Shown one piece after another: positions 17,643 to 43,189 of a stretch of 64,000 nt of DNA; the first letter of the stretch is position 1; each line of letters begins with the position of its first letter. Below the pieces are notes generated by a model that was not told the DNA's origin, ran no database searches, and saw only the letters and a program-made list of their open reading frames with translations. Made by a program: the position numbers and the translations under genes. This stretch comes from Methylococcales bacterium (lineage in GTDB: Bacteria > Pseudomonadota > Gammaproteobacteria > JABHGC01), in assembly GCA_018672285.1 (NCBI GenBank), contig JABHGC010000237.1:17883-81882 (forward strand), in the 5' to 3' direction.

Positions 17643-20273
17643 ATGACCGATTTACCAGATTTAGATCCCCAAGAAACCGAAGAATGGTTAGCCGCTTTAG
17701 AATCCGTATTGGAATCTGATGGTGCTGATCGTGCACACTATTTATTGGAGAAACTAATCGATCAAGCTCGTCGCTCAGGCGTTAATCTGCCTTACAGTGC
17801 AGATACGGCTTACGTCAATACCATCCCTGTGGCAAGCCAAGGTCAAAAGGACGGGGACTTGAGTTTGGAGCGGCGCATTCGCTCACTCGTTCGCTGGAAT
17901 GCGATGGCGATGGTGATAAAAGCGAATCGTAGCAACCCTGATTTAGGTGGTCACATTTCCAGCTTTGCATCAGCAGCCACTTTATATGATGTGGCGTTTA
18001 ACCACTTCTTTAAAGGGAGTGATCTTGTTTTCTTTCAAGGGCATTCAGCTCCTGGTGTTTATGCGCGTGCTTATTTGGAAGGCCGCATAACGGAACAGCA
18101 GTTGAATAACTTTAGGCAAGAGGCTGACGGTAAAGGTTTGTCCTCTTACCCACACCCTTGGTTAATGAAAGATTTTTGGCAGTTCCCAACCGTATCGATG
18201 GGGTTAGGGCCGCTAATGGCGATTTACCAAGCGCGCTATATGAAGTACATCCACAACCGTAAGCTTGCTGATACCGATGGCCGCACCGTTTGGGCATATT
18301 TAGGTGACGGTGAGATGGATGAGCCAGAATCTATTGGTGGTTTGTCCATGGCTGGCCGTGAAAAGCTAGACAACTTAGTGTTTGTGGTTAACTGTAACTT
18401 ACAACGCTTAGATGGCCCTGTTCGCGGTAATGGTAAAATTATTCAAGAATTAGAGTCGTTGTATCGTGGTGCAGGCTGGAACGTGATAAAAGTCATCTGG
18501 GGGTCTTATTGGGATCAACTGTTGGCGAAAGACACAACCGGCTTGTTGCTAAAACGCATGGAAGAAGTGAAAGACGGTGACTTCCAGAACTATAAAGCCA
18601 AAGACGGCGCTTATGTTCGGGAGCATTTCTTTGGTGCTTACCCAGAATTAAAAGCCTTAGTTGCGGATATGAGCGACGATGATATCTGGCGTTTAAATCG
18701 TGGTGGACATGATCCTCACAAATTGTTTGCAGCGTATAAGCAAGCGGCAGAGCATAAAGGTCAACCAACCGTTATTCTGGCTAAAACGGTTAAAGGTTAC
18801 GGCATGGGCGAAGCGGGTGAAGGCCAAAACATTACGCATTCTCAAAAGAAAATGGGAGAAGAGGCGTTACTGGCTTTCCGAGATCGATTTAACATCCCAT
18901 TGTCTGATGAAGAAATTAAAGATGCGCCATTCTTCAAGCCTGCAGATGACAGTGACGAAATTAAGTACTTAAAAGCGCGCCGGGAAGAGCTTGGCGGGTA
19001 TTTGCCAAAACGTCCAACCGATTTCACCGCGCTTGAAACACCCGATATCAGTATCTTTAAAGCGCAAATCAAAGGAACGGGTGAGCGAACTATTTCAACC
19101 ACCATGGCCTTTGTGCGAATATTAACGGCATTAACCCGTGATAAGAAAATCGGCAAAAACATTGTGCCAATTGTCCCTGACGAAGCGCGTACTTTTGGTA
19201 TGGAAGGCATGTTCCAACAGTTGGCGATTTATTCTTCTGTCGGCCAGCTTTACACCCCACAAGACTCCGACCAGCTGATGTCTTATCGAGAAGAAAAAGA
19301 TGGTCAAATTCTGCAAGAAGGGATCAATGAAGCGGGTGCGTTTTCCTCGTGGATTGCGGCAGCAACCTCTTATGCCAACCATGACTTACCGATGGTGCCT
19401 TTCTATATTTATTATTCCATGTTTGGTTTCCAGCGCATTGGCGATTTGGCATGGGCTGCAGGTGATATGCAGGCAAGAGGCTTCTTGCTTGGCGGTACTG
19501 CCGGTAGAACCACGCTCAATGGTGAAGGTTTACAGCACCAAGATGGCCATAGCCATTTAATGTCTAGCACCATTCCTAACTGTGTTTCATACGACCCGAC
19601 TTTCTCTTATGAGTTAGCGGTGATTATTCATGACGGTTTACGCCGTATGTATCAGGAAAAAGAAAGTATTTTCTACTACATCACCGTGATGAACGAAAAT
19701 TACCAACACCCCGATATGCCTAAAGGTGCTGAAGAAGGCATCTTAAAAGGGATTTATCAATTCTCTAAAGCAAAGAATCCAAAAGTCCAATTGTTGGGTT
19801 CGGGCACGATTTTAAGAGAAGTGATTGCCGCGGGTGAATTACTAGAAAAAGACTACAAAATCAACGCGAACGTTTGGAGTGTAACCAGTTTTAATGAGTT
19901 ACGCCGTGAAGCCATCGATTTACAAAGAACGGATCGGCTGAACCCTAAAGCGAAGCCTAAAACGTCTTATGTTGCTAAATGCTTAAACAACCAAGAAGGG
20001 CCTGTGGTTGTCGCGACAGATTATATGCGTTTATATGCAGATCAAATACGTGAGTTTGTGGATAAGCCATTTTATGCCTTAGGGACAGATGGTTTTGGTC
20101 GAAGTGATTCCCGTGATGCCCTGCGAGATTTCTTTGAGGTGAATCGATACTACGTTGTGATCACCGCGTTGAAAGCGTTAGCAGATGCAGGTGATATTCC
20201 TGCGTCGAAAGTGGCCGATGCGATTAAAAAATATGGCATTGATGTAAACAAAGCGAATCCCGCTACCGTTTAA
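17643..20273 (+). CDS. aceE: pyruvate dehydrogenase E1 component (homodimeric type)
   Basis: 876 aa, the size of E. coli AceE. ThDP-binding region 'GDGEMDEPES' and conserved C-terminal transketolase-like domains. Confidence 0.95.
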   Translation: MTDLPDLDPQETEEWLAALESVLESDGADRAHYLLEKLIDQARRSGVNLPYSADTAYVNTIPVASQGQKDGDLSLERRIRSLVRWNAMAMVIKANRSNPDLGGHISSFASAATLYDVAFNHFFKGSDLVFFQGHSAPGVYARAYLEGRITEQQLNNFRQEADGKGLSSYPHPWLMKDFWQFPTVSMGLGPLMAIYQARYMKYIHNRKLADTDGRTVWAYLGDGEMDEPESIGGLSMAGREKLDNLVFVVNCNLQRLDGPVRGNGKIIQELESLYRGAGWNVIKVIWGSYWDQLLAKDTTGLLLKRMEEVKDGDFQNYKAKDGAYVREHFFGAYPELKALVADMSDDDIWRLNRGGHDPHKLFAAYKQAAEHKGQPTVILAKTVKGYGMGEAGEGQNITHSQKKMGEEALLAFRDRFNIPLSDEEIKDAPFFKPADDSDEIKYLKARREELGGYLPKRPTDFTALETPDISIFKAQIKGTGERTISTTMAFVRILTALTRDKKIGKNIVPIVPDEARTFGMEGMFQQLAIYSSVGQLYTPQDSDQLMSYREEKDGQILQEGINEAGAFSSWIAAATSYANHDLPMVPFYIYYSMFGFQRIGDLAWAAGDMQARGFLLGGTAGRTTLNGEGLQHQDGHSHLMSSTIPNCVSYDPTFSYELAVIIHDGLRRMYQEKESIFYYITVMNENYQHPDMPKGAEEGILKGIYQFSKAKNPKVQLLGSGTILREVIAAGELLEKDYKINANVWSVTSFNELRREAIDLQRTDRLNPKAKPKTSYVAKCLNNQEGPVVVATDYMRLYADQIREFVDKPFYALGTDGFGRSDSRDALRDFFEVNRYYVVITALKALADAGDIPASKVADAIKKYGIDVNKANPATV

Positions 20274-20296
20274 AGCAATCAGAATTAGGAGCTATT

Positions 20297-21586
20297 GTGG
20301 CAGAAGTTAAACAAGTCGTTGTCCCTGATATTGGTGGCGTTGATGACGTTGAAATTATCGAAATATTGGTTGCTGTAGGCGATACCGTTGCAGTTGATGA
20401 CCCATTGATTACCCTGGAAAGTGATAAAGCTTCCATGGACATTCCATCGCCTTTTGCAGGTACTGTAAAAGAGTTGTTATGTGCCTTAGAGGATAAAATC
20501 AGCGAAGGTGGTGCCATCTTAATGATGGAGGCAGAAGAGGCAGCGGCAGTATCAGCTGCACCTGCAGAAAAGCCTGAACCTGTTGCCGCTGTAGAGGCGC
20601 CAAAGCCTGCACCTGTTGAAGCACCTGCCGCACCTAAAGTGGCACCTGCAAAACACATTGCAAATGATGTGAATGTGACACCCAGTGGTGAAGCTCATGC
20701 GTCGCCTACTATTCGCCGGTTTGCCCGTGAGCTTGGTGTTGACTTAGGCAAAGTCACCGGTTCTGGTCGTAAAAAACGTATTTTAAAAGAAGATGTTCAG
20801 TCGTATGTTAAAAAAGCACTGGCATCCGGTGGTAGTGCAAGTGGTGGGGCTGGTTTGCCTAAGCCACCAGTGGTTGATTTCAGTAAGTTTGGCGAAACTG
20901 AATTACTACCGCTTTCTCGTATCAAAAAAATATCTGGCGCGCATTTACATAGCTGCTGGTTGAATGTGCCACATGTAACGCAATTCGACGAAGCCGATAT
21001 CACAGATCTTGAAATCTTCCGTAAAGAAATGAAAGGTGCCGCTGAAAAACAAGGCGTTAAATTAACCTTCTTACCCTTCTTGATGAAAGCGTTGGCGCAT
21101 GTGTTACTGCAATTCCCAAATTTCAATGCCTCGTTAGATGAGACGGGTGAAAACCTCATTCTGAAAAAATATTGCAACATTGGTATTGCTGTTGATACAC
21201 CCGATGGTTTGATGGTGCCAGTGGTTAGAGATGTGGATAAAAAAGGGGTATTGGAACTTGCGGCTGACTTGATGGCGCTGAGTCAAAAAGCGCGCGACAA
21301 AAAGCTATCACCCGCTGATTTGCAAGGTGGCTGTATGTCTATCTCAAGCTTAGGTGGCATTGGTGGTACCGCATTTACACCGATTGTGAATATGCCTGAA
21401 GTGGCCATACTCGGTGTGTCTCGAAGCTCAATGAAGCCTGTTTATGATGGTAAAGAATTTCAGCCTCGCTTGATGCTGCCATTATCCTTGTCTTACGACC
21501 ATCGAGTGATTGATGGTGCGTTAGGGGCAAGGTTTACCGTGGCATTGAGTTCTGTGTTAGCGGATATGCGGAAGGCTTTGCTGTAA
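20297..21586 (+). CDS. aceF: dihydrolipoamide acetyltransferase E2 with a single lipoyl domain
   Basis: 429 aa. One lipoyl domain ('LESDKASMDIPSP'), an Ala/Pro linker, a peripheral subunit-binding domain, and catalytic domain 'DHRVIDGA'. Confidence 0.9.
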   Translation: MAEVKQVVVPDIGGVDDVEIIEILVAVGDTVAVDDPLITLESDKASMDIPSPFAGTVKELLCALEDKISEGGAILMMEAEEAAAVSAAPAEKPEPVAAVEAPKPAPVEAPAAPKVAPAKHIANDVNVTPSGEAHASPTIRRFARELGVDLGKVTGSGRKKRILKEDVQSYVKKALASGGSASGGAGLPKPPVVDFSKFGETELLPLSRIKKISGAHLHSCWLNVPHVTQFDEADITDLEIFRKEMKGAAEKQGVKLTFLPFLMKALAHVLLQFPNFNASLDETGENLILKKYCNIGIAVDTPDGLMVPVVRDVDKKGVLELAADLMALSQKARDKKLSPADLQGGCMSISSLGGIGGTAFTPIVNMPEVAILGVSRSSMKPVYDGKEFQPRLMLPLSLSYDHRVIDGALGARFTVALSSVLADMRKALL

Positions 21587-26252: not shown

Positions 26253-27404
26253 CTAGCTGCATACTTGGTTTCTTCCCTTCTTTTTGGCTTTATATAAAGC
26301 CTTGTCTGCATTTTTAACAACATCATTAGGGGTTTGTCTCGCCATTTTTAAGGCGCAGCCAATACTAATGGTCACGGAGACATTTTTCTTGGTTTTACCT
26401 TTATTGGATTTAATGATGCGGCTTTCTACTGCTTCACGGACTTGCTCGAGTTTATCCATCGCTTTATCAAAATTACCGGAAGAAAAGACAATGGTGAATT
26501 CTTCACCACCATAGCGATATGCATTTTGGCCAACACATTTTTTAATGGTACGAGCAACATCATTCAGCACTTTATCGCCCATATCGTGGCCGTAGGTGTC
26601 ATTGAATTTTTTGAAGTGATCAATGTCGATCATTGCAATACAGTAGTGACCCGTTAACCCTGCAAGGCGTTCGTTTAAAGCGCGTCTTGCAGGTATTTGA
26701 GTTAAATCATCATAAAAAGCAATGCTATGTAGGTGAGATAATAATCCAAATAAGCTGATGCTGAGTGCGGTGGTGATCAAACTTTGAAATAACCAAGCTT
26801 CATGGCTGTAGTGAAAGGCTAAAAATAGTGCGATAAAGGCCCCAAAATAACTTTGTCGTAATGATGATGGATAAGCCCTAAAAAAGAGAATGACACTTGC
26901 AGATAGCATTGAGTACAGTATCCAGTCAGCTTGAGATAGGTGGTTTAAAACGGGTGCCTTCTGCTGTAACCAAGCTGTAACCGGTGTTAATACGTCACTG
27001 TGCTGTGTTAGCCAAACAGCCGCACTGACTTGTGCTGCAAGTAAAGACCATTTAAGCAAATTTCTTAATGTGAAAAAGTGGACATCTTGAAATAAACAGC
27101 AAAATAAGGCGTTGCTAATAAGTAAGGCGATGATGCCAATCTCATGGATATGGTTGTGAACAATCGGCTGACTTTGATAGAGCAGTAACCCAATAGACAA
27201 TGTGCTGATTAATAAGCAAGTGGTCCGGTGAAATTTAAGACATAACAGAATATTAATGCTGGCAATAATATAAGGGAGGAGCTGTAGTAAACCCTGAATT
27301 TTCGAGGTGAGTTGTATCACATAAGGCTGAGCATAAAAAACACTGGCTACGAATAATAATGGTAAAAATAGAGTGGACAGGGTGTGTCCTAGCAATGCGC
27401 GCAT
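26253..27404 (-). CDS. membrane-bound diguanylate cyclase (multi-TM N-terminal domain plus GGDEF)
   Basis: 383 aa. About 7 TM helices, then a GGDEF domain with active-site 'RYGGEEF'. Confidence 0.8.
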   Translation of the reverse strand: MRALLGHTLSTLFLPLLFVASVFYAQPYVIQLTSKIQGLLQLLPYIIASINILLCLKFHRTTCLLISTLSIGLLLYQSQPIVHNHIHEIGIIALLISNALFCCLFQDVHFFTLRNLLKWSLLAAQVSAAVWLTQHSDVLTPVTAWLQQKAPVLNHLSQADWILYSMLSASVILFFRAYPSSLRQSYFGAFIALFLAFHYSHEAWLFQSLITTALSISLFGLLSHLHSIAFYDDLTQIPARRALNERLAGLTGHYCIAMIDIDHFKKFNDTYGHDMGDKVLNDVARTIKKCVGQNAYRYGGEEFTIVFSSGNFDKAMDKLEQVREAVESRIIKSNKGKTKKNVSVTISIGCALKMARQTPNDVVKNADKALYKAKKKGRNQVCS

Positions 27405-27621
27405 ACCAACCCCCGAGAGCTAACTGATTAATTGATTATCGGCAAGCCAGCCATGAACTTTAGAGTTAACCCCAGAAAGTTTGGGGTGGGTTAATCTGTT
27501 TATCTTGTTTTTACGCACCAAAATGAGGTGAAAATTTCTCTTTCCGTTCTGTTTTGGTGCAAGTTAAAGCTGTAAATATAGTCTATTGTTATATGAGACA
27601 AAAAATAATCAGGCTAATACT

Positions 27622-30600
27622 ATGCGTAAACTGTTTTATTCTCTTATTGCTTCGATGATTCTATTTATCCCTTTCGTTTTTGCAGCTGATGCACCTGATT
27701 TTGAAGCAAGACTGCAGGCAGTTGAGCAAACCCAAAATAACTTGAACCATGTTTGGACGATGATCGCGGCTTGCTTGGTTTTTTTTATGCAGGCAGGGTT
27801 TTTGTTTTTAGAAGCAGGCATGGTGCGCTCTAAAAATTCAATTAATGTCGCCCAGAAGAACATTGCAGACATCGTTATTTCAGCCGTTTGCTTTGGTGGT
27901 GTTGGGTTTATGTTGATGTTTGGTGATAGCCAAGGGGCATTCGGTTACCAATCTGACCTTCTGTTTTTTGACCAAGTAGAAGATTGGACATTTACCTTTT
28001 TTGTTTTCCAGGTGGTTTTTTGTGGCACGGCAGCCACCATCGTGTCTGGTGCGGTTGCAGAACGGATGCAATTTGTCGGGTACTTGTATACCACAGTCTT
28101 TATCGCGTTGATTGTGTACCCTCTATACGGTCATTGGGCTTGGGGGAACTTGTTGAATACAGACAATACTGCCTGGATTGCTGATTTAGGTTTTATCGAC
28201 TTTGCCGGGTCCACGGTGGTGCATTCTATTGGTGGCTGGGTGGCGTTAGCGGGTGTTGTTGTGTTGGGCGCAAGGATTGGCCGATTTGATGAAAAGACCG
28301 GTGAGGTTAAACGTTTAATAGGGCATAGCCCGGTCCTCGCAACCGTTGGTACCATTATTTTATGGATCGGTTGGATTGGCTTTAACGGCGGGTCTACGAC
28401 AGCGGGGACACCCCAATTTGCACATATTATTGCCAATACGGTGGTTGCCGGTGGTATTGGTGGGCTTGCAGGGTTAATCATTGGCAGAATAATGGATGGG
28501 TATTTTCGCCCGGACAGTTCCATCGTTGGCGTACTGGGTGGCTTAGTAGCCGTAACCGCAGGTTGCGATGTGCTATCGATGTGGGGCGCTGTGGTGATCG
28601 GGGCGAGTGGTGGCGCACTGTCAAATGTGATGGCGAAAGTCATGGTGACAAAGTGGAAGTTGGATGATGCGGTTGATGCGGTTGCCATTCATGGCTTTTC
28701 TGGCGCATGGGGTACCACTGTCATGGTGTTTTTAGTGCACCCTGAGAAATTAGAAATGGGGGTCTGGGCACAATTTGGCGTGCAATGTTTTGGTGTTTTT
28801 GTTGGCTTTGTTTGGGCATTTGGTCTGTCTTACGTGTTTTTCAAAATCTTGGATCGTGTTTTACCAGGTGGATTAAGGGTCACTAAAGAGCAAGAAAGGG
28901 AAGGGTTAAATGTATCAGAGCACGGGACTCAGCTCGGTACAGGAGAATTACTGAAAGGCATGATTGCACTCGCGGAGACCGGGGATTTTAATCAAGAGTT
29001 GGATGAAACCGCAGGGGATGAATCCGGGGAGCTGGCTATTGCCTTTAATCGCGTCGTGCTGTCAATGAGGCAACAAGATGAAGCAAGGGAGTTGGTGCAA
29101 AAGAAAAAGTTTTCACAGGAACGAGAGATTGCGATGGCCAGTACGCGGATAAAGCAGGCCTTAGATAATGTTTCGGCGAATGTGTTAGTGGCGGATGTCG
29201 GGCATAAAATTATTTATGCTAACCCTGCACTGCAAAACCTCTTTAAAGAGGTCGAGGGGGATTTGCACAAGGCCGTGCCAGATGTACGTGTCACCGAGAT
29301 TGAAGGTGTGCCTTTAGAGGTTTTGGCAACCAGCGATGCTTCTCCTTTTCATGCTGCACAGTTAGATTCTTTAGAGAGCGCTACCGGGACGGAAGTGGTT
29401 TATGGTAACAGTACGTTCGTTATTCAGGGCAACCCGGTCATGAATGAGCAACAGCAGCGAATTGGTTTTGTCTTTGAGTGGACAAATATCACTAAGGAGT
29501 TGGCTGTACAGCAAGAAATTGATGAGGTTGTTCAAGCCGCCAAACAAGGTGACTTTAATCATCGAATTCCGGTGGCAGAAAAACACGGCTTTATGCTCAG
29601 TCTTAGTGAGGGTATCAATCACGTGATTGATACATCAGCTGAAGGGTTGGATGAGGTCAAAGCGGTGTTGGCTGCCATTTCATCAGGGGATTTAAGCCGG
29701 CGTTTTGAAAAGGACTTTCCTGGCACTTTTGGTGAACTAAAAGAGTATTGTAACCATACGGTTGACTCTTTGAATGATGTGCTTGGGAGAATCTCTACCG
29801 TTGTAAAATCTGCCAATGCAGGGGATTTTAGCTCTGAAGTGTCCGTCAATGAACTATCAGGATACCAGGTTGAGATGGCCGAGAGCATTAATGCGCTTGT
29901 ATCGACAACGGCGACAGGTTTGTCTGAAGTTTCACAAGTCTTATCTGCAATTTCAAACGGTGATTTGTCTCAGAGAATAACGGTTGAATTACCTGGCACC
30001 TTTGGTGAACTCAGTGAGTATTGCAACCACACGGTAGATTCATTGCAAACCATTATAGGTCAGTTGGGGCGTGTTGTTGCTGCCGCAAATGAAGGGGATT
30101 TTGATGTAAGAGCAACGGTTGAAGGGTTGCAGGGTTATCAGAGTGAGGTCGGTGAGGGCATTAATCAATTGGTTGAAACCTGTAAACAAGGTTTGGATGA
30201 GGTGGTGATGGTACTCTCTGCGTTGTCCAAAGGGGATTTATCGACCACGATTACAGGGGATTATCAGGGCATATTTTTGCAGCTGAAAAACAGTGCAAAT
30301 GGCACCATTGCCCAATTGGTTTCGACCATTGACCAAATACACCAATCGTCTGATTTTGTTGCCGCTGTTGCTGACAATATTTCTTCTGCTAATAGTAACC
30401 TTAAGGAGAGAACAGAACAGCAAATACGCTTTTTAGGGAATACAAAAGATAATGTAAAACAGATGGTTGGGGTTGTTGATTTAAACATGAACCACTCCGA
30501 GGAGGCTCGAGACCTAGCGGGTAAGGCTCAATTGCAAGCGACTAAGGGTGGACAGGTTATGACCCTGGTTAAGACCTCAATGGAAGGGATAAAAGACAGT

Positions 30601-31098
30601 AGCGACCGTATTACTGATATTATTGAGGTCATTGATGGCATTGCATTTCAAACCAATTTATTAGCGCTCAATGCGTCGGTTGAAGCCGCTAGGGCAGGTG
30701 ATCAAGGCAAAGGTTTTGCGGTGGTTGCGACTGAAGTGCGTAATTTGGCATTGAGAAGTAAAACAGCCTCAAAAGAAATTGCGGATTTAATCAAAGAAAG
30801 TCGTGAAAATGTTGTTAATGGTGGGCGCCTGGTTGATGAGTTTGATCAGGTTCTAAATGGTATTATGCGGTCTGTGAATCAAGTGAATAAAATTAATTAT
30901 AGCGTTGCAGATGCCAGTAAAGAGCAACATAAAAGCATCAATGAAATGACGGAGCAGTTTGAGAAAATGGGGCAGACAACGGATGAGAATGCTTCTTTGG
31001 TAGGGCAAGTTGCCGTCAGTAGCAAAAAATTGGTGTCTAGTGCGATAACGTTGAGGGAGCAGATGGCCTTTTTTCAAATAGCGCCATCAGCAGTTTAA
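27622..31098 (+). CDS. ammonium transporter (Amt) fused to a tandem HAMP-like array and a methyl-accepting chemotaxis signalling domain
   Basis: ORF 27586..31098 (TTG); likely start ATG 27622 with signal peptide '[24 protein letters not shown]'. Amt signature '[14 protein letters not shown]...LGARIGRF'. Then about 5 repeated 50-aa modules ('GDFNHRIPV...', '[29 protein letters not shown]', '[29 protein letters not shown]', '[15 protein letters not shown]'). Then the MCP core '[34 protein letters not shown]'. Confidence 0.85.
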
Positions 31099-31173: not shown

Positions 31174-34099
31174 TTAATATGATCGCATCTGATCACACTG
31201 TAAGTTATCACCCGCAGCAACACCTAAGTTTTGCGTAATTGTTTGATAAAACCCAACCCGATCTTTGGTTTTGCCATTGTGAGGTTGGTTGCACTCTAAA
31301 CCGCCATTAATCACGTTGATGGTCATGCCAAAGCCAGGCAATCGTCCTGCATTAACGTCTTCACTGCTTGGGACCCACTTGCCCGTCATTACGTCATGGT
31401 TAGACGGTTTAGGAGATTGCGTGGTCATCCAGAACCAAATAGCCGATCGAAAAGACAATACGCCATCTGTTGTGAGTAATTGAGGGTTGCTCAATAAGTC
31501 AATATCTAGCATCTCGCCCATTAACCCGTAGTTATAGTTCCAGCTTAACTGCATCGGGCCTCGACCGTGATACGTGTTTCCTGAGCTACAAAATGCACCA
31601 TACTTGGCATTGGTTGAGTCACAGTAACCGGTGCAAGCACCACCCTCGCAGCCAACTTCCTCTTTAAAGTGTAAACCCCAAGTGTAACGTTGGTCACCGA
31701 TTTCATAACCCCCCCCAACCGCCGGTTGTTTCATGTGCAATGTTCGCTAAAAAAGCGGCTAATTCTTGCTTTCGTTGGCTGAGTGATCCTTCGGTTAAGA
31801 AGTTTTCATAGTAACCTGTGGCTTCTTTTAATGCACTGTAGCTAAATAATGCATTTCTATTGGGAAAAAGTGCGTTAAATTCAGACTCAGACATTAAATC
31901 AGAAAAGCCTGAGTTGTTGCCACCTGTTTGATTATCTTGGTTGTCGTCCGTATCTGTCTCATCCGGTGTGTCGTCAGTTGGTTCTGGCTCTGAGTTGTCT
32001 GTTCCTTCGTCAATGGGGTTGGTCACTTCGACTTGTGGTGTATGGCCTAAACCTTCGTTCATTGCATTAAGAATTCGGCCATTATCGGCATCGATTTCCC
32101 AAGAAAATAAACCCGCCAAACCTAAATCACGAACATACTGTCCTTTCGCTCTGGTTGAACGCTGGTTGTCATATGTGATCAATACGCCAGTGCTGCTATT
32201 AAACACATATGGGGCTTCTGCGGCTTCATCATAACCATAAGTAAAGCCGTTGATGCCTTGGCCGGTACTGCCTAAATAGTTGTTCTCAATATCTCGGTAA
32301 TCGAGTACACCAGCTTCCCAGGTGCCTTTTGCAGCGCCATGGCCAGTGCCTGTGAGCGGGTTGCCACCAGTCATATCTGTCACGCCTGTCCAGCCTCGGC
32401 CGTACATTGCGGTTCCTAATACGATTTTACCTGCAGGTACGCCGGCATCAATCATGCCTCGTACACCTTCGTCTGCACTGTACCCTTCAATTTTTGAATC
32501 TGCAGTGGGGTATAGTGCTGTTTGGTGACCCACGGTGCCATTCCATGCACCATAAAAATCATAGGTCATGGCAAAAAAGTAATCGACCGCTTCACTCGCT
32601 TGCACATAATTAACGTTGTCGATTTTACTTGGGCCAACACCAACCGCTGAGGTGAGTTGGTATTCTTTACCGGTTTCTTGCTCAAGGTCGTCTAGGGCTG
32701 CTCTTAACTCTGTCATTAAGTCTGCATAACCCTGTCGATCTTGTGATGAACCTTTGTTGGGGTTGGCACCTTCACCGCCTGGGAATTCCCAGTCAATATC
32801 GATGCCGCCAAAGAATTCATATTGTCGTAAAAAATCCATGCAAGAGGCGACAAAGGTCGCTCGTCTTGCTGGCACATTGGCAATATCAAAGAAGGGGTCA
32901 GAGAGCGTCCAGCCACCAATAGAAGGTAATATGGTGATGTCTGGGTTGGCTGCTTTTAACCGAGTCAATTGGCCAAAGTTACCACGAATGGGGTCATCCC
33001 ATTTGTCTCCAGGGTAAGATTTTTCTAAAGAGGCAAAGCGGTCAACGATGGTCACCGTATCATCTGCTTTACTGGCGCACTCGGCGTTAATGGCTGTTTG
33101 TGCACCGGCTAATGCCGAGTCATTGTCTCCACAAATGGCGATAAAGCCATACAGTAAGTGCGTTAGGTTTTGGGCTGGGATTTTATCAACAGGGTAGTTA
33201 CGACCATAAATGCCCCATTCAGCGAAATAGGTACCGACAATTTTCCCACTGGTGTTTTTATAAGGGACATTGAATTCGCCTAAATCTGTCGGTGTCGGTG
33301 CCGGTGCTGGGTCGACTTCAGGGTCTGGTGTCGGATCAGGATCGGGGGTTGGCTCTGGGTCTGGCGTTGGGGTGCTTGCAGAACCAATGTTGATACTGCG
33401 GCTTTCACTTAAGGTGCAGGAGTCGCCAGAGCACAATTCGATAACAAACGCGTGGTTGCCTTCATCTAGGTTGACGACGGTGCTGTCAGATTGTGCTTGT
33501 TGGCCATTGGTGGTTAGGTTTGCGCTGTGAATTCTGGTGCCGTTGTGTAAAAGTGCCCATGAATCACCATTGGTTCCCCACCACATATCCCATTTTACGG
33601 TTAATGCGCCTGCTTCAGCTGAATCGGGTAACCAGGCGATGGTTGGCTTGCTGGGTGCTAATGCGGGTGTGGTGTCAGGGGTATCATCTTCAACGGGGGT
33701 GTCTTCTGTTGGCGTATCTTCAACAGGGGTTTCAGGTTCTGCTGCATCACCTGCGACGACAATGCTTTTACGGTCTGTTTTACAGCCATCGCTATTACAC
33801 AGATCCACTTCTAATGTTTGTTCTCCAGGTACTAAAGCCACTTGACAGCTACTGCTTTGTGCTTGGTTACCATTCGGTGACAGTTGTCCTGAGCACACTG
33901 ACGCGCCATTTGAATACAGTGTCCAGTGGGTACCATTTTCTCCCCACCACATATTCCAGCTGACGGCGTGGTTGGCTGGTGCATCGAACTGGGTTGGCAT
34001 CCAGTCAATGTGAGGCTGGCCTGGAGCTGCTGTTGCTGTGGCATGGAATCCGCTTAATAAAGTGCCGATCAGGAGAGGAAGCATTTGAATCTTTGGCAT
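31174..34099 (-). pseudogene. secreted chitinase with two catalytic domains, GH18 (ChiA-like, two N-terminal ChiA_N-like domains) and C-terminal GH19, interrupted by a frameshift in a G8 tract
   Basis: The 798-aa ORF 31703..34099 has a signal peptide, two repeated ChiA N-terminal-like domains ('WNMWWGENGTHW', 'WDMWWGTNGDSW'), acidic Pro/Thr linkers, and a GH18 core with 'GGIDIDWEFPGG'. It ends '...[18 protein letters not shown]', which is the start of a GH19 domain. The GH19 domain continues in the overlapping ORF 31174..31740: '[14 protein letters not shown]', '[27 protein letters not shown]'. The frames switch within the C8/G8 run at 31709-31716; removing one G reads through as ...[23 protein letters not shown]... 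Confidence 0.8.
31709..31716 (-). repeat. G8 (C8 on + strand) homopolymer at the chitinase frameshift site
   Basis: Direct reading of the sequence 'cataaccccccccaacc'. Confidence 0.9.
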
Positions 34100-34373: not shown

Positions 34374-35456
34374 TTATTCAGTGCAATGTTTGGCAAAGGG
34401 CAGGTTGGCTAAGAAGTTAGGCTGAAGCGGTTGTTTGCTATGAGTTTGGGTGAACGTTTTGAAATCAATCAGCTTAAAAGCTGTGCTGGTGAGGTGTGGG
34501 GCGCAGCGTGGTAGGTTGTTGAGGGTCATGGGATACATTTGTAAAACAATCTGTGTGCCAAGTGATGGGGCGAAGTCAAACTGGTTGTAGTGATCGTATG
34601 CCAATAATAGGGCTATGCCACCCCCGATAAAGTGGCCGCCAACGGAGGCTGCTAATGTGCCTTGTTTAACCGCTTCAATCCCTTCATCCGACCAGTCCAC
34701 TCCCCCTATAATGATGGCTGATTTTTTCTGTTGTTGGCTGGTCGCTTTGGCTGCGCCTAAAGACAGGCTATCACTTGCCGCCCAAATGATATTGCATTGT
34801 GGGTAGCGTTTGAGCAGTACTTTGGTTTTTTTGTAACCTTCCTCTGCTGTCCAGCTATTCGATCGGGTGACTTGGTGTAGTATTGCGGACTGTTTAGCTG
34901 CTGCTTGTTCTAACCCTGACATTCGTAGTTTTGCTGTGGATGAGTTGAAAGAGCCATTCAGGCCGATGATGTTAGCTGTGCCGCCTGCTGGCAGTTGTTT
35001 GATTAAGGTTGTTGCGAGCAAAGCGCCAGCCTGATGATCATTCGGTGAAAGGTGTGCTAACCAGTATTTGAACTGACCTCTAGGTAGACCAAATTGGCTT
35101 TTCTCTTGTGCCAGTATGTCACTGTTAAAAATAATGGCCTGCGTTTGGGATTGCTCAGCAAGTTGTAAAATTTTAAGTCCTGTTCCTTTTAAATTGATAA
35201 ACAACAGGTAGTCGGGTTTATTGTTAAGGGCGGTTTCTGCCATTTTATAGTACTGAAAACGGTTGGTAATACCCGATTTTGGCATGTAATAAACCTGTAG
35301 GTTTATGCCTAATTGGTTGGCAGCTGCGCGCATGAACTGGGCGGTTTTTTCCCAAAATGGGTGACTGTCTGTTGCAGGGTTTAAGAACGCAATGTTGGGC
35401 TTAGCCCAAATCCCATTAGCAAAAAACAGGCAGAGAGTGAGCAGTAAAAACCTCAT
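34374..35456 (-). CDS. periplasmic binding protein, type-1 PBP fold (sugar-binding/LuxP/TorT-like), signal peptide
   Basis: 360 aa, signal peptide 'MRFLLLTLCLFFANGIWA', two-lobed PBP1-like pattern. Its start overlaps the upstream response regulator's stop in an ATGA overlap (35453-35456). Confidence 0.65.
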   Translation of the reverse strand: MRFLLLTLCLFFANGIWAKPNIAFLNPATDSHPFWEKTAQFMRAAANQLGINLQVYYMPKSGITNRFQYYKMAETALNNKPDYLLFINLKGTGLKILQLAEQSQTQAIIFNSDILAQEKSQFGLPRGQFKYWLAHLSPNDHQAGALLATTLIKQLPAGGTANIIGLNGSFNSSTAKLRMSGLEQAAAKQSAILHQVTRSNSWTAEEGYKKTKVLLKRYPQCNIIWAASDSLSLGAAKATSQQQKKSAIIIGGVDWSDEGIEAVKQGTLAASVGGHFIGGGIALLLAYDHYNQFDFAPSLGTQIVLQMYPMTLNNLPRCAPHLTSTAFKLIDFKTFTQTHSKQPLQPNFLANLPFAKHCTE

Positions 35457-36127
35457 GTAGTATCTTCACCTAAGTGAATAATGCCCAGTTGAACGGCTTC
35501 AAATACGGCCTCGCTCCGTGATTTTACGGACAGTTTTCGATATATTTTTTTTGCATGTGAGGTAATGGTATGTACCGAGTTACCCATGACAGATGCGGTT
35601 TCTTTGTAAGAAAATCCTTTGGCTATGTACTCTAAAACGAGCTTTTCTCGGGTGGTGATGTTGGGTACCTCAACGCCAGGTATGATGGGTACTTCAGGTA
35701 AGGGTATGCTAAACCGTTTTAAGACATGTCTTGCAATCGCGGGGCTGAGCGGAGAGTGCCCTGCGACTAATTGCAGCACAGAGTCGGCAATAGATTCATT
35801 GGTTGCATCTTTTAATAAATAACCTGTTGCACCGGCTTCTAGTGCATTCATGACATTTTTTTCATCGGCAAAAATGGTGATGACCATAATTTCTGTGGAG
35901 GCTGAGTGCTGATGTGCATTTTTAATGAGATCAATGCCCGTGCCATCTGGCAGGCCAATGTCTGTCAACAAAACGTCCGGGTAGGCCTGTTCAAACTGAG
36001 CTAATGCTTGTTTGCAATTGCCCACACTGGCGATCAATGAGAGCTGTTCATGCTGCTCAATGGCATGGGAAAGCCGTTTTCGGGTGGGTGGATCGTCTTC
36101 AACGAGCATGACGCGAATGGGAGGCAT
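35453..36127 (-). CDS. NarL/FixJ-family response regulator (REC plus LuxR-type HTH)
   Basis: 224 aa, 'VMLVEDDPPTR...LTDIGLPDGTG' receiver and C-terminal 'LTTREKLVLEYIAKGFSYKETA' LuxR HTH. Confidence 0.9.
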   Translation of the reverse strand: MPPIRVMLVEDDPPTRKRLSHAIEQHEQLSLIASVGNCKQALAQFEQAYPDVLLTDIGLPDGTGIDLIKNAHQHSASTEIMVITIFADEKNVMNALEAGATGYLLKDATNESIADSVLQLVAGHSPLSPAIARHVLKRFSIPLPEVPIIPGVEVPNITTREKLVLEYIAKGFSYKETASVMGNSVHTITSHAKKIYRKLSVKSRSEAVFEAVQLGIIHLGEDTT

Positions 36128-36238: not shown

Positions 36239-37186
36239 ATGTTCCATACCAAGATCATGAGTAAGATATTGATTTGTGAAGAAAATGATGACAGCTTGGT
36301 ACGAATTAAAGACTTTTGTGAGTTAAATAACTTATACCCATTAAAAATGGCTGATGTCGGTAGTTTGGAAAAAGTGTTGTCTTCACACCTTGACCTTGGT
36401 GGTGTTTTTCTCTCGGAAAATTTTAGCCAGTTTGATGATGTCATTCAGCAATTTCACCATGTAAGAGCTGAGGTGCCTATATTTGTACTTCGCACCTGTA
36501 ATGAACATTTATCCAGCACACTGGCTGACGGGGTGTCGGGTGAGTTTACCTTTGATACATTGGAAGAATTAAAAGCATTAATTGAAGAAACGATTTTTAG
36601 CATGGTGTACCCCGAGAAACTCATTACTCGGATGCGTGAAATATCCATGTCGATGCTAGAAAGTCAGTTTAAAAATACTAAAATCAACTGCGACTTGCCT
36701 TATTTGGTGCTGGATCACATGATTTTTGGCAAGTTACTCAGTATCATCCCGATTGAGAGTGATTGGTGCCGGGGGTATATGTCTTTACAGGCCGAAAAAG
36801 CACCTGTGAATGAGATGATTAAAGCGGGTAAAACGCATATATTAATGGATGAATTTGATGATGGCTTTCGGGGGGTGAGTAGTTTGGTTGGGGAGTTGAC
36901 CAACTTGATTTGGGGTGGGATGAAAAATGAATTTTTTAATACCATATCAAACAGCAGCTTTAGAACCCAAGTGCCTATTTTAATTAACCATGATTTACAG
37001 CATATTTCATTTGGTTCTAAGTGCCCGCAATTGTGTTTCCGTTACGAATTGCAAAGTGAAAACATTCCGCCTATTGCAATTTATCAGAAATTTATTTTTA
37101 ACTTAGAGTGGTCACCTGAGCGCTTTGTAGAGAGTGATGAGGCTGAGGAAGAATTGGTTGAATCTGGTGGTTTAGAGCTGTTTTAA
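36239..37186 (+). CDS. hypothetical protein: degenerate receiver-like N-terminus plus C-terminal region with a CheC/CheX-like 'GELTN' (E-x2-N) motif
   Basis: 315 aa. 'ILICEENDDS...DLGGVFLSEN...VPIFVLRT' resembles a REC fold lacking the canonical DD and phospho-Asp. 'SSLVGELTNLIWGG' fits the CheC/CheX phosphatase active-site pattern (A/G)-E-x2-N-x3-G. Assignment is tentative. Confidence 0.4.
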   Translation: MFHTKIMSKILICEENDDSLVRIKDFCELNNLYPLKMADVGSLEKVLSSHLDLGGVFLSENFSQFDDVIQQFHHVRAEVPIFVLRTCNEHLSSTLADGVSGEFTFDTLEELKALIEETIFSMVYPEKLITRMREISMSMLESQFKNTKINCDLPYLVLDHMIFGKLLSIIPIESDWCRGYMSLQAEKAPVNEMIKAGKTHILMDEFDDGFRGVSSLVGELTNLIWGGMKNEFFNTISNSSFRTQVPILINHDLQHISFGSKCPQLCFRYELQSENIPPIAIYQKFIFNLEWSPERFVESDEAEEELVESGGLELF

Positions 37187-37187
37187 A

Positions 37188-38636
37188 TCAAGCCGTAGGT
37201 ATGGCTAACTCTAAAGTAAGTTGGGTGCCATGTTGTTCTACTCCAGATACTAAATAGGGGCTACTCAGTTGGTAGCTTGCTTGAACCTTATCTGCTCGAT
37301 AGGACATATTGCTTAACCCTCTACCATCGTAGTCATTATCTGCTGTAAAACCGACACCATTATCCGATATTTGTACGATTATTTTACTGTCCTGTAGGTT
37401 ACAGCTTAAATTGAGGGTGTTTGCTTTACAGTGCTTCATGCTATTGGTCACAAATTCTTGTAAGATTCTCACCAGTTGTAAACGGGTGTCTGAGCTGTAG
37501 TGAATGTTATCTCCTGCTTGGTCCACTTGCCAGTTAAAGTGGATATTTTGTACCTCTAGCTGTGGCTCTATTCTGTTTCGGAACATACCAAGGCAGCTAT
37601 TTAAATCATCGGCAGTGCTATCGAGTGAGTCAATAATTAAGCGCAAATCCGTCATGCTTGCACGGACTGCCTGCTCTATATCTGCTCGGCTATAGTGATC
37701 ACAACTGACCATTGATAGGGTGGATATTAACAGGCCGCCAACACCATCATGCATGTCTCGCATAATACGCTCACGTTCTGCAGAAACCCCTTTTTCATGC
37801 TCTAAGGTGATGAGCTTTTTGAAAGAGGATTGAAGCTCATCATTGGCGGTCTCAAGTTCATTGGTGCGCTTTTGAACCTGTAGCTCTAAGTGGTTTTGAT
37901 AGTTTTTTAAGGAGCGTTCCGCTTGGTCTCTTTGCTGTAGGGTGTTATCAAACTTATCTAATAAATGATTGATGGTATCAATCAGCTCTCCAATCTCATT
38001 GTGTTTGTTTTTATCTAATATTTCAATGCGGGTGTTGTACGCGGTGCTGGGATCTATTTGAGAAATACGCTGAATGATTTTGATTAGCGGTAACGTTAAG
38101 GTGATGTAAAAGGCGACTAAAAACAGTAAGGCCAGTAAGGTGTTACGAATGAAGCCACTACCAAATACTATGGCTGCTCGATGGAGCAATTTATCAATTA
38201 ACACTAACTGACTGGCTTGGAGTTGTAGAATGCCAATTTTTTGCAGGCTTTCAGGGTCAATAATGGGGTGTTCGAATAGGATTGGGTTGAGATCTAAATA
38301 CGCTGAAAACCAATATTCAGTCGTTATGGGGTGTTGATGCTGGGCGATGGTGGCTTTGTGTTGGTCTATTACAGCCGCAGACTCGACTGCGGGGTGGTGA
38401 AATAATCCTTTTAATACCGCATTTGCTAAGCCTTCATCAACATCTAGAATCGCTCTGGTCAAAGGGGACTCAAACATGCTTAAAGCTTGGCTTAGGTCTT
38501 GTTTTAATTGTGTTTGTTCGTCAAATGCATCGTATATAATTTGGCTGGTGCTAATGAGTAAACCAAGGCATAGCGCCAGTAGCATGGTAATTTTGGCGTG
38601 TTGTAAGGCAAGTTTGCTTCTGAATGGGTGGTTCAT
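37188..38636 (-). CDS. sensor histidine kinase, HisKA_3 (NarX-like) family, with periplasmic sensor domain
   Basis: 482 aa, two TM helices flanking a ~150-aa periplasmic domain, coiled-coil linker, H-box 'ERERIMRDMHDGVGGLL', and HATPase_c with 'DNGVGF'. Confidence 0.85.
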   Translation of the reverse strand: MNHPFRSKLALQHAKITMLLALCLGLLISTSQIIYDAFDEQTQLKQDLSQALSMFESPLTRAILDVDEGLANAVLKGLFHHPAVESAAVIDQHKATIAQHQHPITTEYWFSAYLDLNPILFEHPIIDPESLQKIGILQLQASQLVLIDKLLHRAAIVFGSGFIRNTLLALLFLVAFYITLTLPLIKIIQRISQIDPSTAYNTRIEILDKNKHNEIGELIDTINHLLDKFDNTLQQRDQAERSLKNYQNHLELQVQKRTNELETANDELQSSFKKLITLEHEKGVSAERERIMRDMHDGVGGLLISTLSMVSCDHYSRADIEQAVRASMTDLRLIIDSLDSTADDLNSCLGMFRNRIEPQLEVQNIHFNWQVDQAGDNIHYSSDTRLQLVRILQEFVTNSMKHCKANTLNLSCNLQDSKIIVQISDNGVGFTADNDYDGRGLSNMSYRADKVQASYQLSSPYLVSGVEQHGTQLTLELAIPTA

Positions 38637-38650
38637 CTTTACCTTGTTGG

Positions 38651-40636
38651 TTAAATCCGATAACTAGACAGGCTGCTTTTTAGAAGGGTTAAGTTTTTAT
38701 ATTTGAGGTTTTCATCGAAGTGTTCTGTTAAAAAGGCTGTGAACTCATCTTCAGGTAGGGGTTTGCTGATGAAATATCCTTGAGCAATATCACAACCCAT
38801 GTCTAATAATTGCTGATAAATATCTTGAGATTCAATGCCCTCGGCAACAACAAGTAAACCTAAGTTATGGGCAAGGTCTACTGTTGAACGCACAATAGCT
38901 GCGTCATCCATATCCGTTGTCATATCACGAATAAAAGATTGGTCAATTTTTAACTCGCTCACGGGGAGCTTTTTCAGTCGGCTTAATGACGAGTAACCTG
39001 TGCCGAAATCATCAATGGATAGGTGGACGTCCATATCTCGGATAAGTGCTAATGTATCGGCTAAATTATCATAGTCAGACAAAAATAAATTTTCAGTGAT
39101 CTCAAACAACAGCTGATGTCGGAAAGGGTGGTTACTCAAGCTGTTTTTAATGGTTGAGATAAAGTCTTGGCTAACGAGTGTTTGGGTGGAGATGTTTACG
39201 GCAATTTTAATTTTAAACCCAATGTTATTCCAACACTGAATCTGTAGCAGTGCTTCTCTTATTGCCCAGTCGGTAAAGCGATTAATTAGCCCTGTTTGTT
39301 CTAAACAGGGGATAAATTGATCTGGGGGGGTCATGCCGTGGCCGTCTCGCGGCCATCTTGCGAGGGCTTCAACACCGATTAAAGTGCCTGTTTCTATATC
39401 GAGCTTGGGTTGGTAGTAAAGCGTAAATTCATTCTGGTCTAGTGCTTGGTGAAGGTCTGCGACTAAGGTGACTTTGAATAGTGATGATTGATCTTCATCA
39501 GGATTATAAATGCTGTAGCCACTTTTGCTACTTTTTGCATGATACATCGCGTGGTCAACATGGCTTAGTAAGGTATTGGTATCTTCTCCATGTTCTGGGT
39601 AGCTGGCAATGCCGATGCTGGCATGGATGGTGATTGGGGTTGCATCATCTGAATTTGCCTGTTTCAGTGCGAAAGGTGTATCGAGTAAGTTGAGTAATGA
39701 TTGTGCGTAACGTGATGCATCAGCGGAATCGGAGTCAGCTAAGATTAAGGTGAACTCATCACCGCCTAATCGACTGAACGTTTTATCTTGGTCGATAAAA
39801 GCAGATAGCCGTTTTGTGACTTTCTGTAGTAAAGCGTCGCCCTGGTCATGGCCTAAGGTGTCATTGACTTGCTTAAAGTCATTTAAGTCGATCAGTAAAA
39901 TGCTGAGGTCGTTATCTTGATGATCGGCATATTTGAGTTGTTGTGATAATCGGCCTTTGAAAAGTGACCGGTTAGGTAGTGCCGTTAAGGGGTCGTATAG
40001 GCTTAAGTGCTCAAGGCGTTGGTTGTTTGCAACGAGGCGTTTGTTGAGCCTCCCCATTCGCATTTGGTATTCGGCGTTGACTTTATTCGCCGTTTCGATT
40101 TCTTGCACCGTAAACGCATTCTCTATTGCGATAGCGACAATACTGGCAAACAAAGACAGTAAATTGAGGTCTCGACGGGTGAAGTCTCCACCACCTATTT
40201 TATTGATGCCAGCTATGCCACCTAAAAAATGCTTTGGCCCTTGTAGCGGCACGAGAATGATGGTGTTTGACTCTTTATTCCAGCGAGCTTTCTCTTCTTC
40301 GCTTAGCTCGTTAATGGTCTCTGACCACCACGCTTTTTTATGTGCCCAGACCCAACCACACACACCGTAGTCAATGGGCATCGTTTCACCGATGATGGTG
40401 TCCGCATCGTCGCCTGCACCTCCGCAATAGGTATAGGTGTTTGCATATTGGTCTAAGATGGGGATCAGTAGTGTTTTGGCTTGAACCAGTGTTTTAGCGC
40501 GATGTGCAACAATGTGATAGATCGACTCTAAATCTAGCTGACTGCCAATTTCGGTGAAGGTTTGCTGGAGCAGCTCAATTTCTTCTTCTGCATTAAAGAG
40601 TTGTTGTTCTAACTCGGGTGGTTCCATGCTGCTCAT
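38651..40636 (-). CDS. GAF-GGDEF-EAL c-di-GMP cyclase/phosphodiesterase
   Basis: 661 aa, N-terminal GAF, 'RLGGDEFTLIL' GGDEF motif, 'EALARW' EAL motif with downstream 'DDFGTGYSS'. Confidence 0.85.
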   Translation of the reverse strand: MSSMEPPELEQQLFNAEEEIELLQQTFTEIGSQLDLESIYHIVAHRAKTLVQAKTLLIPILDQYANTYTYCGGAGDDADTIIGETMPIDYGVCGWVWAHKKAWWSETINELSEEEKARWNKESNTIILVPLQGPKHFLGGIAGINKIGGGDFTRRDLNLLSLFASIVAIAIENAFTVQEIETANKVNAEYQMRMGRLNKRLVANNQRLEHLSLYDPLTALPNRSLFKGRLSQQLKYADHQDNDLSILLIDLNDFKQVNDTLGHDQGDALLQKVTKRLSAFIDQDKTFSRLGGDEFTLILADSDSADASRYAQSLLNLLDTPFALKQANSDDATPITIHASIGIASYPEHGEDTNTLLSHVDHAMYHAKSSKSGYSIYNPDEDQSSLFKVTLVADLHQALDQNEFTLYYQPKLDIETGTLIGVEALARWPRDGHGMTPPDQFIPCLEQTGLINRFTDWAIREALLQIQCWNNIGFKIKIAVNISTQTLVSQDFISTIKNSLSNHPFRHQLLFEITENLFLSDYDNLADTLALIRDMDVHLSIDDFGTGYSSLSRLKKLPVSELKIDQSFIRDMTTDMDDAAIVRSTVDLAHNLGLLVVAEGIESQDIYQQLLDMGCDIAQGYFISKPLPEDEFTAFLTEHFDENLKYKNLTLLKSSLSSYRI

Positions 40637-41388: not shown

Positions 41389-41492
41389 AAGTCAGTTCCA
41401 CCCTTTCTTAGTTGACTGGTAGGTTTAAATTTGAGTTTTAATCAGCAATATGGCTTTTTTAAGCCCGATATCACTGTCGTTTTACTATGACG

Positions 41493-43110: not shown

Positions 43111-43135
43111 GTCGCTATGCCTTTTTGTTAGGTAT

Positions 43136-43163
43136 AAAAAAAGCGCGATGCGAGTAATCGCAC
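43136..43163 (-). terminator. intrinsic terminator/attenuator between the precursor gene and the MNIO gene
   Basis: On the minus-strand RNA: gugcgau-uacucgc-aucgcgc (7-bp stem, one G-U) followed by U7 (plus-strand A7 at 43136-43142). It lies 27 nt after the precursor stop and 26 nt before the DUF692 start. Confidence 0.55.
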
Positions 43164-43189
43164 CACGCTTATCGGTAGTCTAGCGCTAA

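Follow-up and report, generated by a model that had tools for sequence, protein, structure and literature searches.

An ammonium-receptor-type Amt domain joined through HAMP and PAS modules to a chemoreceptor signalling domain in a Methylococcales bacterium

What does a protein sense that carries an ammonium transporter (Amt) fold at one end and the signalling domain of a methyl-accepting chemotaxis protein (MCP) at the other, and to which pathway does it report? A gene of this design lies in a stretch of 64,000 nucleotides from a Methylococcales bacterium (assembly GCA_018672285.1, contig JABHGC010000237.1, positions 17,883 to 81,882 of the forward strand), which we call the window and in whose numbering all coordinates are given. 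The Amt-fold ammonium receptors characterised so far signal through one of two outputs only, either a histidine kinase or a diguanylate cyclase; with a chemoreceptor output, a CheA-based pathway would gain the ammonium selectivity that the Amt fold provides. Our analysis makes it probable that the gene encodes an ammonium receptor driving a CheA/CheW chemosensory array, probably one of the F7 type, where the binding of ammonium, the direction of signalling and the identity of the partner are what we infer. The gene and its parts are the following:

27622 to 31098, + strand: whole gene of the Amt-HAMP-PAS-(HAMP)6-MCP receptor, 1158 amino acids plus stop.
27622 to 27687, + strand: Sec-type signal peptide, residues 1-22, [21 protein letters not shown]/AD (reading of the sequence; hydrophobic segment 1-27; model helix 2-21).
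27751 to 28929, + strand: Amt domain, residues 44-436, with 11 transmembrane helices (Pfam; model; Foldseek).
27790 to 28047, + strand: N1/N2 ammonium-binding signature, residues 57-142, namely Q57, E64, N80, D83, I84, T139 and S142 (regular expression with any residue allowed at the F/T position).
28525 to 28527, + strand: exit residue 302, a Val (alignment of 120 Amt-MCP homologs).
28939 to 29121, + strand: membrane-proximal HAMP domain (HAMP0), residues about 440-500, connector GDFN at 454 (Pfam HAMP, E = 1e-4; helix-connector-helix in the model).
29134 to 29505, + strand: Aer2-type PAS domain, residues about 505-628 (PAS_8, E = 1.4e-5; matches to the PAS domain of PaAer2, 4HI4, and to 3VOL).
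29506 to 30321, + strand: array of six HAMP domains forming three di-HAMP units, residues about 629-900 (Pfam scans; connector spacing; model).
30322 to 31065, + strand: MCP signalling (kinase-control) hairpin, predicted to be of the 36-heptad (36H) class, residues about 901-1148, tip near 1025 (Pfam; alignment to Tsr; model).

Segment-wise Pfam scans, the spacing of G-[DN]-[LF]-[ST] connectors and an AlphaFold2 model all agree on this layout. Ammonium_transp matched residues 44-436 with E = 9e-101 and 337.9 bits (PF00909 cut-off 23.2), and the NCBIfam profile TIGR00836 'amt' gave 349.7 bits, slightly over its cut-off of 343.3. MCPsignal (PF00015) matched residues 964-1119 (E = 7e-45; 153.4 bits, cut-off 34.6), HAMP and HAMP_2 were found in three stretches each, and a weak PAS_8 match lies at 509-554. 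An earlier note on this DNA had described a frame at 27586-31098 in which an Amt channel is fused directly to a five-module HAMP-like array and an MCP domain. These coordinates and every motif that it quoted are present in the translation, and the matches to Ammonium_transp, HAMP/HAMP_2 and MCPsignal confirm that an Amt domain is fused via HAMP modules to a genuine MCP domain. The domain scan which it had suggested returned the three expected families and in addition the PAS domain, which had been missed. The fusion is not direct, because HAMP0 and then the PAS domain intervene between the Amt domain and the array according to the Pfam scans and the alignment to Aer2. The HAMP array itself is real, but the HAMPs number seven (HAMP0 and six more) and not five, and the repeat motif given as common to the modules ([21 protein letters not shown]) is shared by just two of them.

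HAMP0 scored 23.1 bits in Pfam, slightly below the cut-off of 25; its residues D466, E467, E470 and N476 are near-invariant among Amt-MCP homologs. The connectors of the array stand at 643, 689, 734, 780, 825 and 871, with a spacing of 45-46 amino acids and an alternation of GDF-type and GDL-type, and continuous helices in the AlphaFold2 model join the second helix of one HAMP to the first of the next. The array thus shows what characterises a poly-HAMP chain: at least two concatenated HAMPs, continuous helices and alternating types. A recent tandem duplication of the modules could be rejected, since the di-HAMP units share just 38-50% identity in protein and about 55% in DNA and Tandem Repeats Finder reported no DNA-level tandem repeat at the HAMP array. 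The array is therefore old.

Is the fusion genuine in the first place? The source is a metagenome-assembled genome (MAG) and a neighbouring chitinase gene appears frameshifted, so that one might suspect a chimeric assembly or a decaying pseudogene without function. We regard the chance of this as negligible: the frame is unbroken across 3.5 kb, functional residues are kept all along the protein, the identical protein is found in five independent records (NCBI, two Methylococcales MAG records; JGI, one contig; ENA, two contigs), and relatives with the same architecture are known at 40% identity, with one such protein located on a 2-Mb contig. In view of these records and of this relative the Amt-MCP fusion is genuine and not an assembly artefact, an explanation which homologs, residue conservation and identical records effectively refute. 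As for its beginning, the program-made open reading frame (27586 to 31098, + strand) would comprise 1170 amino acids if begun at TTG 27586. However, ATG 27622 is probably the true start, giving 1158 amino acids, because it leaves a signal peptide at the N-terminus and is also the start in the NCBI records of the identical protein.

Does the Amt domain belong to a transporter or to a receptor? The model has a predicted local distance difference test (pLDDT) score of 90-98 in this domain, and its template modelling (TM) scores range from 0.88 to 0.95 across solved Amts. By sequence, the closest solved structures are those of Ks-Amt5 (6EU6, 318 bits) and Sd-Amt1 (8QJ3, 317 bits), whereas transporter sequences score lower (Af-Amt1 149 bits, EcAmtB about 110). 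Foldseek gave the same picture, with TM scores of 0.95 to Ks-Amt5 and 0.93-0.94 to Sd-Amt1 at 42% identity in both cases, compared to 25-30% identity for the transporters. Receptor-type Amts are defined by a lateral pocket for two ammonium ions, the N1/N2 site, and the signature QX6EX15NX2D[F/T]X54-60TX2[S/T] has been proposed for it (PMC11152129). The present protein departs from this signature solely in Ile84 at the F/T position, with the spacing otherwise correct; the corresponding residue of Sd-Amt1, Phe-49, is not a ligand (PMC11152129).

We aligned the 120 best homologs from a collection of 5.8 billion proteins as a sample of the Amt-MCP family. Not one of the 120 deviates at Q57, E64, N80, D83, T139 or S142, and the same is true of the pore residues, all of which are intact here by alignment: the twin-His pair H201/H357, the Phe gate F133/F254, W174/S258 and D193. 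The transporter hallmarks Tyr27 and Ser251, which line the exit of Af-Amt1, align with E64 and V302. A cytoplasmic transducer, HAMP-PAS-(HAMP)6-MCP, is fused to the C-terminal end, as the ammonium-receptor (AmR) subclass requires. Judged by its sequence, the protein is an Amt family member that fits the definition of the AmR subclass. Of the two readouts proposed earlier, ammonium flux or occupancy, occupancy is favoured, because the Amt domain is of the AmR type and has the N1/N2 signature.

To which pathway would such a receptor report? The signalling domain aligns without gaps to residues 229-518 of E. coli Tsr, the conserved hairpin tip included, and the model has hairpin helices at 884-1024 and 1026-1148, with arms of about 125 and 123 residues. 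The Tsr alignment and the arm lengths, rather than class-specific hidden Markov models, point to the 36H class. All of 130 Aer2-like receptors of gammaproteobacteria are 36H and belong to F7 systems (PMC7184735). In species with an ancestral F7 system, among them the methanotroph Methylomicrobium alcaliphilum, the flagella are run by an F6 system with 40H receptors, and the output of F7 is unclear, possibly a stress response (PMC7184735). Given the predicted 36H class and the Methylococcales host, our receptor is more likely to signal to a CheA of the F7 type than into the flagellar pathway.

The competing possibility, a classical flagellar chemotaxis receptor that sits in the main membrane array and steers swimming in ammonium gradients, is a serious one, even if we hold it to be the less probable of the two. 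The MCP domain is genuine and its hairpin tip conserved, 36H receptors do run flagella in late-stage F7 bacteria such as E. coli (PMC7184735), and Amt-MCPs are present in motile chemotactic genera, e.g. Azospirillum and Terasakiella. But ancestral-F7 gammaproteobacteria, including a Methylococcales species, use F6 with 40H receptors for this task and leave the 36H Aer2-like receptors to F7 (PMC7184735), the methylation consensus and the C-terminal pentapeptide are both missing from the present protein, and no che or flagellar genes lie nearby. A readout through the chemotaxis machinery, as assumed in the earlier note, is consequently sound as far as the genuine MCP domain goes; a flagellar output is not secured, in view of the 36H class, the Methylococcales host and the lack of che genes in the vicinity.

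What, then, is the role of the PAS domain? Together with the first di-HAMP unit it matches PaAer2 (3VOL) with E = 6e-43, and on its own it matches 4HI4 with E = 8e-13, so that the resemblance to Aer2 noticed earlier is upheld. The O2-sensor residues of Aer2, however, are largely missing: the haem-ligating E-eta His (H234 of PaAer2) is replaced by Ala569, the O2-stabilising Tyr/His of G-beta by Thr588, and the H-beta Leu by Ile601. W620 and N622-I-T624 are retained. The coordination of haem by this His has been called a defining feature of Aer2 PAS domains, and a His-to-Ala exchange at E-eta of VvAer2 lowers haem binding to 1-7% (PMC10107281). The E-eta position is a His in 189 of 288 related PAS domains and in none of the three aligned PAS domains of Amt-fused proteins, i.e. 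that of the present protein and both of its relative P0002. Because the O2-sensor residues are largely missing, we read the domain as a haem-less relay which would have kept its coupling elements while ammonium took the place of O2 as the input of the receptor; it could still bind some other ligand.

If it did, the PAS domain might be the real or a second sensor, for O2, redox state or a cytoplasmic metabolite, and the Amt domain would be chiefly an anchor in the membrane and a scaffold for oligomerisation, or else one of two integrated inputs. We consider this quite improbable in spite of the homology to the O2-sensing PAS domain of Aer2 and of the fact that ligand binding is common among PAS domains, because E-eta His, G-beta Tyr/His and H-beta Leu have become Ala, Thr and Ile, the first of these exchanges abolishes haem binding in VvAer2 (PMC10107281), and both PAS domains of P0002 are likewise without the His. 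Furthermore, most Amt-MCPs have no PAS domain and yet an invariant N1/N2 site, which argues for the Amt domain as the conserved sensor.

The similarity to Aer2 does not extend to membership. From the Aer2 core of PAS, di-HAMP and 36H domain, the PAS and the homologous di-HAMP are present, and two extra di-HAMP units precede the 36H domain. The NCBIfam equivalog profile for Vibrio Aer2 (NF041847) matches the C-terminal 340 residues partially, with 412 bits against a cut-off of 1200. The C-terminal pentapeptide x-[HFYW]-xx-[HFYW], known from 96 of 130 Aer2-like receptors (PMC7184735), was not found at the end of the protein, which reads ...[10 protein letters not shown]. With a score below the profile cut-off and with neither the haem His nor the pentapeptide, an assignment to Aer2 was ruled out.

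The protein seems to have two kinds of relatives, and we compared its segments with Amt-MCPs on the one hand and with the 150 nearest PAS plus di-HAMP relatives, collected by an exhaustive HMMER search, on the other. The Amt domain shares 62-66% identity with that of other Amt-MCPs, whereas none of the 150 proteins in the second set contains one, and HAMP0 matches the Amt-MCP set only, with 49-59% identity over short stretches. Vice versa, the HAMP array and the MCP domain are 49-52% and 43-45% identical to non-Amt receptors, compared to 29-38% for Amt-MCPs, and the PAS domain shares 36-39% identity with those of the 150 relatives. In P0124, the nearest relative without an Amt domain, about 200 N-terminal residues that match nothing in Pfam are followed by a HAMP, a PAS of the Aer2 type in which the haem His is present, a HAMP array and finally the MCP domain. 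On sequence grounds the protein is a mosaic, with Amt and HAMP0 from the Amt-MCP side and PAS, array and MCP from Aer2-like non-Amt receptors. Segment identities and the layout of P0124 suggest that the AmR-HAMP head of the Amt-MCP family would have taken the place of the sensor on a membrane-bound Aer2-like chassis of the type sensor-HAMP-PAS-polyHAMP-MCP.

The combination of Amt and MCP is by no means a rarity: the design is common in the databases, and 120 of 120 best homologs possess both PF00909 and PF00015. A scan of species-representative genomes yielded full-length matches in Alphaproteobacteria (Curvivirga, Terasakiella, Roseibium aestuarii, Sphingomonas, Sphingobium and Altererythrobacter, as well as MAGs of Rhizobiaceae, Hyphomicrobiales, Methylobacterium and Rhodobacterales), in Thiohalospira (Gammaproteobacteria), Salibacterium qingdaonense (Bacillota), Leptospira perolatii (Spirochaetes) and Aureliella (Planctomycetota). 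Databases name these proteins "ammonium transporter" and rarely "methyl-accepting chemotaxis protein". Throughout the family, conservation extends to the junction that follows the last transmembrane helix (RVSxExExxGLNxxEHG...) and to the first HAMP. The length between the end of the Amt domain and the hairpin tip varies: the commonest class (59 sequences) has a linker of about 195 residues with a single HAMP, further classes of about 272-287 and 360-373 residues have short HAMP arrays, and the longest linkers are those of the present protein (576 residues) and of P0002 (604 residues, with two PAS domains).

A subgroup of Amt-MCPs ends in a PilZ domain (P0044, P0052, P0066, P0086 and P0088, e.g. 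from a Methyloligellaceae MAG), which suggests an input of cyclic di-GMP to the same receptor. Many receptor-type Amt genes of Roseibium, Stappia, Marinomonas, Vreelandella, cyanobacteria and others (loci such as L009, L011-L014, L020 and L021) match our protein only up to residues 540-575 and appear to be Amt-HAMP joined to other outputs. In Terasakiella sp. SH-1 (CP038255.1, locus L002) a gene at 17972 to 20434, about 5 kb downstream of the Amt-MCP gene, encodes a NIT-HAMP-MCP-hemerythrin receptor, so that two putative nitrogen-compound chemoreceptors would sit near each other.

Full-text searches turned up no paper in which an Amt-MCP protein is described or tested; a 2009 survey of Amt fusions may list the architecture. 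Neither the two AmR papers nor a review of Amt proteins from 2023 speaks of chemotaxis. In the literature reached, no ammonium receptor with an MCP output has been described, and the architecture is abundant in the databases. The AmR authors predicted that many more ammonium receptors would be discovered, and the present design is of the kind that they expected.

How could ammonium control a kinase through such a chain? The trimer-forming AmR-type Amt domain would admit NH4+ via W174/S258, the Phe gate and the twin-His pair. By analogy with Sd-Amt1 and Ks-Amt5, the ion would be diverted past the twin-His pair and held at N1/N2, a lateral pocket lined by Q57, E64, N80, D83, T139 and S142. Occupancy of this site may displace the cytoplasmic end of the last transmembrane helix, as it does between the ON and OFF structures of Sd-Amt1, and the displacement would be relayed in line through HAMP0, the haem-less PAS, the six HAMPs and the 36H hairpin, with a sign that is not predictable. 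The hairpin tip would then set the activity of CheA/CheW, as expected from its domain family.

Several observations weigh against this scheme. The Asn which narrows the exit of Sd-Amt1 (N269), and which is present in 117 of the 120 Amt-MCP homologs, is Val302 here, and the protein may conduct ammonium differently. In the low-confidence PAS part of the model pLDDT falls below 50, because only three sequences of the alignment cover this domain. The consensus for methylation, [ASTG]xx[EQ][EQ]xx[ASTG][ASTG], was not found anywhere in the protein, and only the first EQ pair of the Tsr methylation sites is retained (E932-Q933); both this motif and the C-terminal pentapeptide, which bear on adaptation, are lacking. 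No cheA, cheW, cheY, cheR or cheB gene is present within the 64-kb window, in which a CheX-domain protein (36239 to 37186) is the only che-like item. Finally, we infer the binding of ammonium, the absence of transport and the control of a kinase alike.

The exit residue bears on the question of whether we deal with a true transceptor, in which the Amt domain still imports ammonium and reports flux or conformational cycling instead of a static N1/N2 occupancy. All pore elements of a working transporter (W174/S258, F133/F254, H201/H357 and D193) are intact, the exit Asn is replaced here by Val and in the two other PAS-bearing relatives, P0002 and P0003, by Val or Ile (the only three such cases among the 120), and some proteins with the N1/N2 signature, e.g. 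plant AMT1, do transport (PMC11152129). Nevertheless, we think this unlikely: the nearest proteins by sequence and fold are two that are reported mainly to bind and not to translocate NH4+, the Tyr/Ser exit pair of the transporters is missing, Val is apolar and larger than the Ser of transporters, and no glnK gene is adjacent. The position is occupied by Thr in Ks-Amt5, and an Asn there is a feature of Sd-Amt1 outside the published signature. An occupancy-sensing receptor remains our preferred interpretation.

A further difficulty for an ammonium receptor of this design concerns symmetry. Amt domains are obligate trimers, whereas HAMP, PAS and MCP units form dimers, which in the case of the MCPs assemble further into trimers of dimers. 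How a trimeric sensor drives dimers that are packed in this way is a structural puzzle, and one that Sd-Amt1 poses as well. There, two of the three chains have been proposed to pair dynamically (PMC11152129). Dimers that bridge neighbouring Amt trimers would be an alternative solution. Rather doubtful, yet worth formulating, is a more far-reaching idea: Amt-MCPs may be a distinct class of chemoreceptors across phyla, with a trimeric channel-fold sensor in place of a dimeric ligand-binding domain, whose threefold head would template or constrain the packing into trimers of dimers, e.g. with every dimer spanning two Amt trimers, and in the present case ammonium would be connected to F7 via a haem-less PAS. 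If true, this class would have an array architecture and a mode of transmembrane signalling not yet described, and the input via the PAS relay would tie the ancestral F7 system to nitrogen status.

The coupling of Amt and MCP could account for the sensing of ammonium gradients in some bacteria, and a receptor feeding the ancestral F7 system would give a pathway of unclear function a defined chemical input. As 36H is also the class of the E. coli receptors, the protein is testable in receptor-less E. coli, as has been done for Aer2.

As regards the surroundings of the gene, no sigma-54/NtrC promoter match was found in the intergenic region 27405-27621, and match counts over the window equal chance; a conserved che operon or glnK neighbourhood was found neither here nor at the P0002 and Terasakiella loci. 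A GGDEF protein is encoded divergently just upstream (26253 to 27404, - strand), and chitinase reading frames follow directly downstream on the opposite strand. One of them (31703 to 34099, - strand) contains ChitinaseA_N, GH18 and the first part of GH19, the other (31174 to 31740, - strand) the remainder of GH19, and together (31174 to 34099, - strand) they seem to be a single GH18-GH19 chitinase gene, interrupted near 31703-31740 by a frameshift or sequencing error. A LuxR-type response regulator stands beside a periplasmic-binding-like protein at 34374 to 36127, and further signalling genes, for a CheX-domain protein, a HATPase_c kinase and a GAF-GGDEF-EAL protein, lie around 36239 to 37186 (+ strand) and 37188 to 40636 (- strand).

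Farther downstream, an operon resembling those for ribosomally synthesised and post-translationally modified peptides (40741 to 43621, - strand) comprises DoxX (40741 to 41217), DUF2063/NGO1945_C (41493 to 42332) and an enzyme of the MbnB/TglH/ChrH family (42259 to 43110). It is preceded by a reading frame of 143 amino acids (43190 to 43621, - strand) with a signal peptide and about ten Cys repeats of the type SCGDK[GA]KA[AG]. We take this operon to resemble a bufferin-type cluster for copper-binding peptides. Two tandem reading frames of 2103 and 1412 amino acids (44041 to 54745, + strand), each with an N-terminal TPS secretion domain, look like two-partner secretion exoproteins similar to filamentous haemagglutinin.

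How does the receptor compare with systems already known? In its cytoplasmic part it resembles Aer2 (PaAer2, VcAer2 and VvAer2; PAS-haem O2 sensors of F7), with which it has in common the PAS plus di-HAMP, the poly-HAMP chain and the 36H domain, and also the I-beta Trp and the DxT-type coupling motif of the PAS. In contrast to Aer2, it has an Amt membrane anchor, no E-eta His, six instead of two HAMPs after the PAS, and no pentapeptide. The Amt-MCPs of the databases (e.g. Terasakiella pusilla, Azospirillum halopraeferens, Hwanghaeella grinnelliae and Phaeovulum vinaykumarii) are alike in the Amt domain (62-66% identity), the N1/N2 site, the Amt-HAMP junction and the MCP output. Most of them, however, have 800-960 amino acids, lack a PAS and carry either a single HAMP or a short array; their MCP domains differ in length from that of the present protein and share no more than 32-38% identity with it, and some end in PilZ.

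The two characterised ammonium receptors are related to its sensory part. Sd-Amt1 of Shewanella denitrificans (Amt-HAMP-GGDEF; 8QJ3/8QJ4; PMC11152129), 42% identical with a TM score of 0.93-0.94, possesses the same N1/N2 signature, has its Phe-25 and Glu-29 matched by F60 and E64, and likewise carries a HAMP straight after the last transmembrane helix; our protein differs in Val302 for Asn269, in Ile at the F/T position, in the inserted PAS and six extra HAMPs, and in an MCP hairpin instead of a diguanylate cyclase. Ks-Amt5 of 'Candidatus Kuenenia stuttgartiensis' (an Amt-histidine kinase; 6EU6; PMC5764959) is the best fold match, with a TM score of 0.95, a root-mean-square deviation of 1.4 Å and 42% identity, and has the same set of N1/N2 ligands. 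In Ks-Amt5 the kinase is fused directly to the Amt domain, whereas the present receptor would act via its MCP domain on a kinase that is a protein of its own, CheA.

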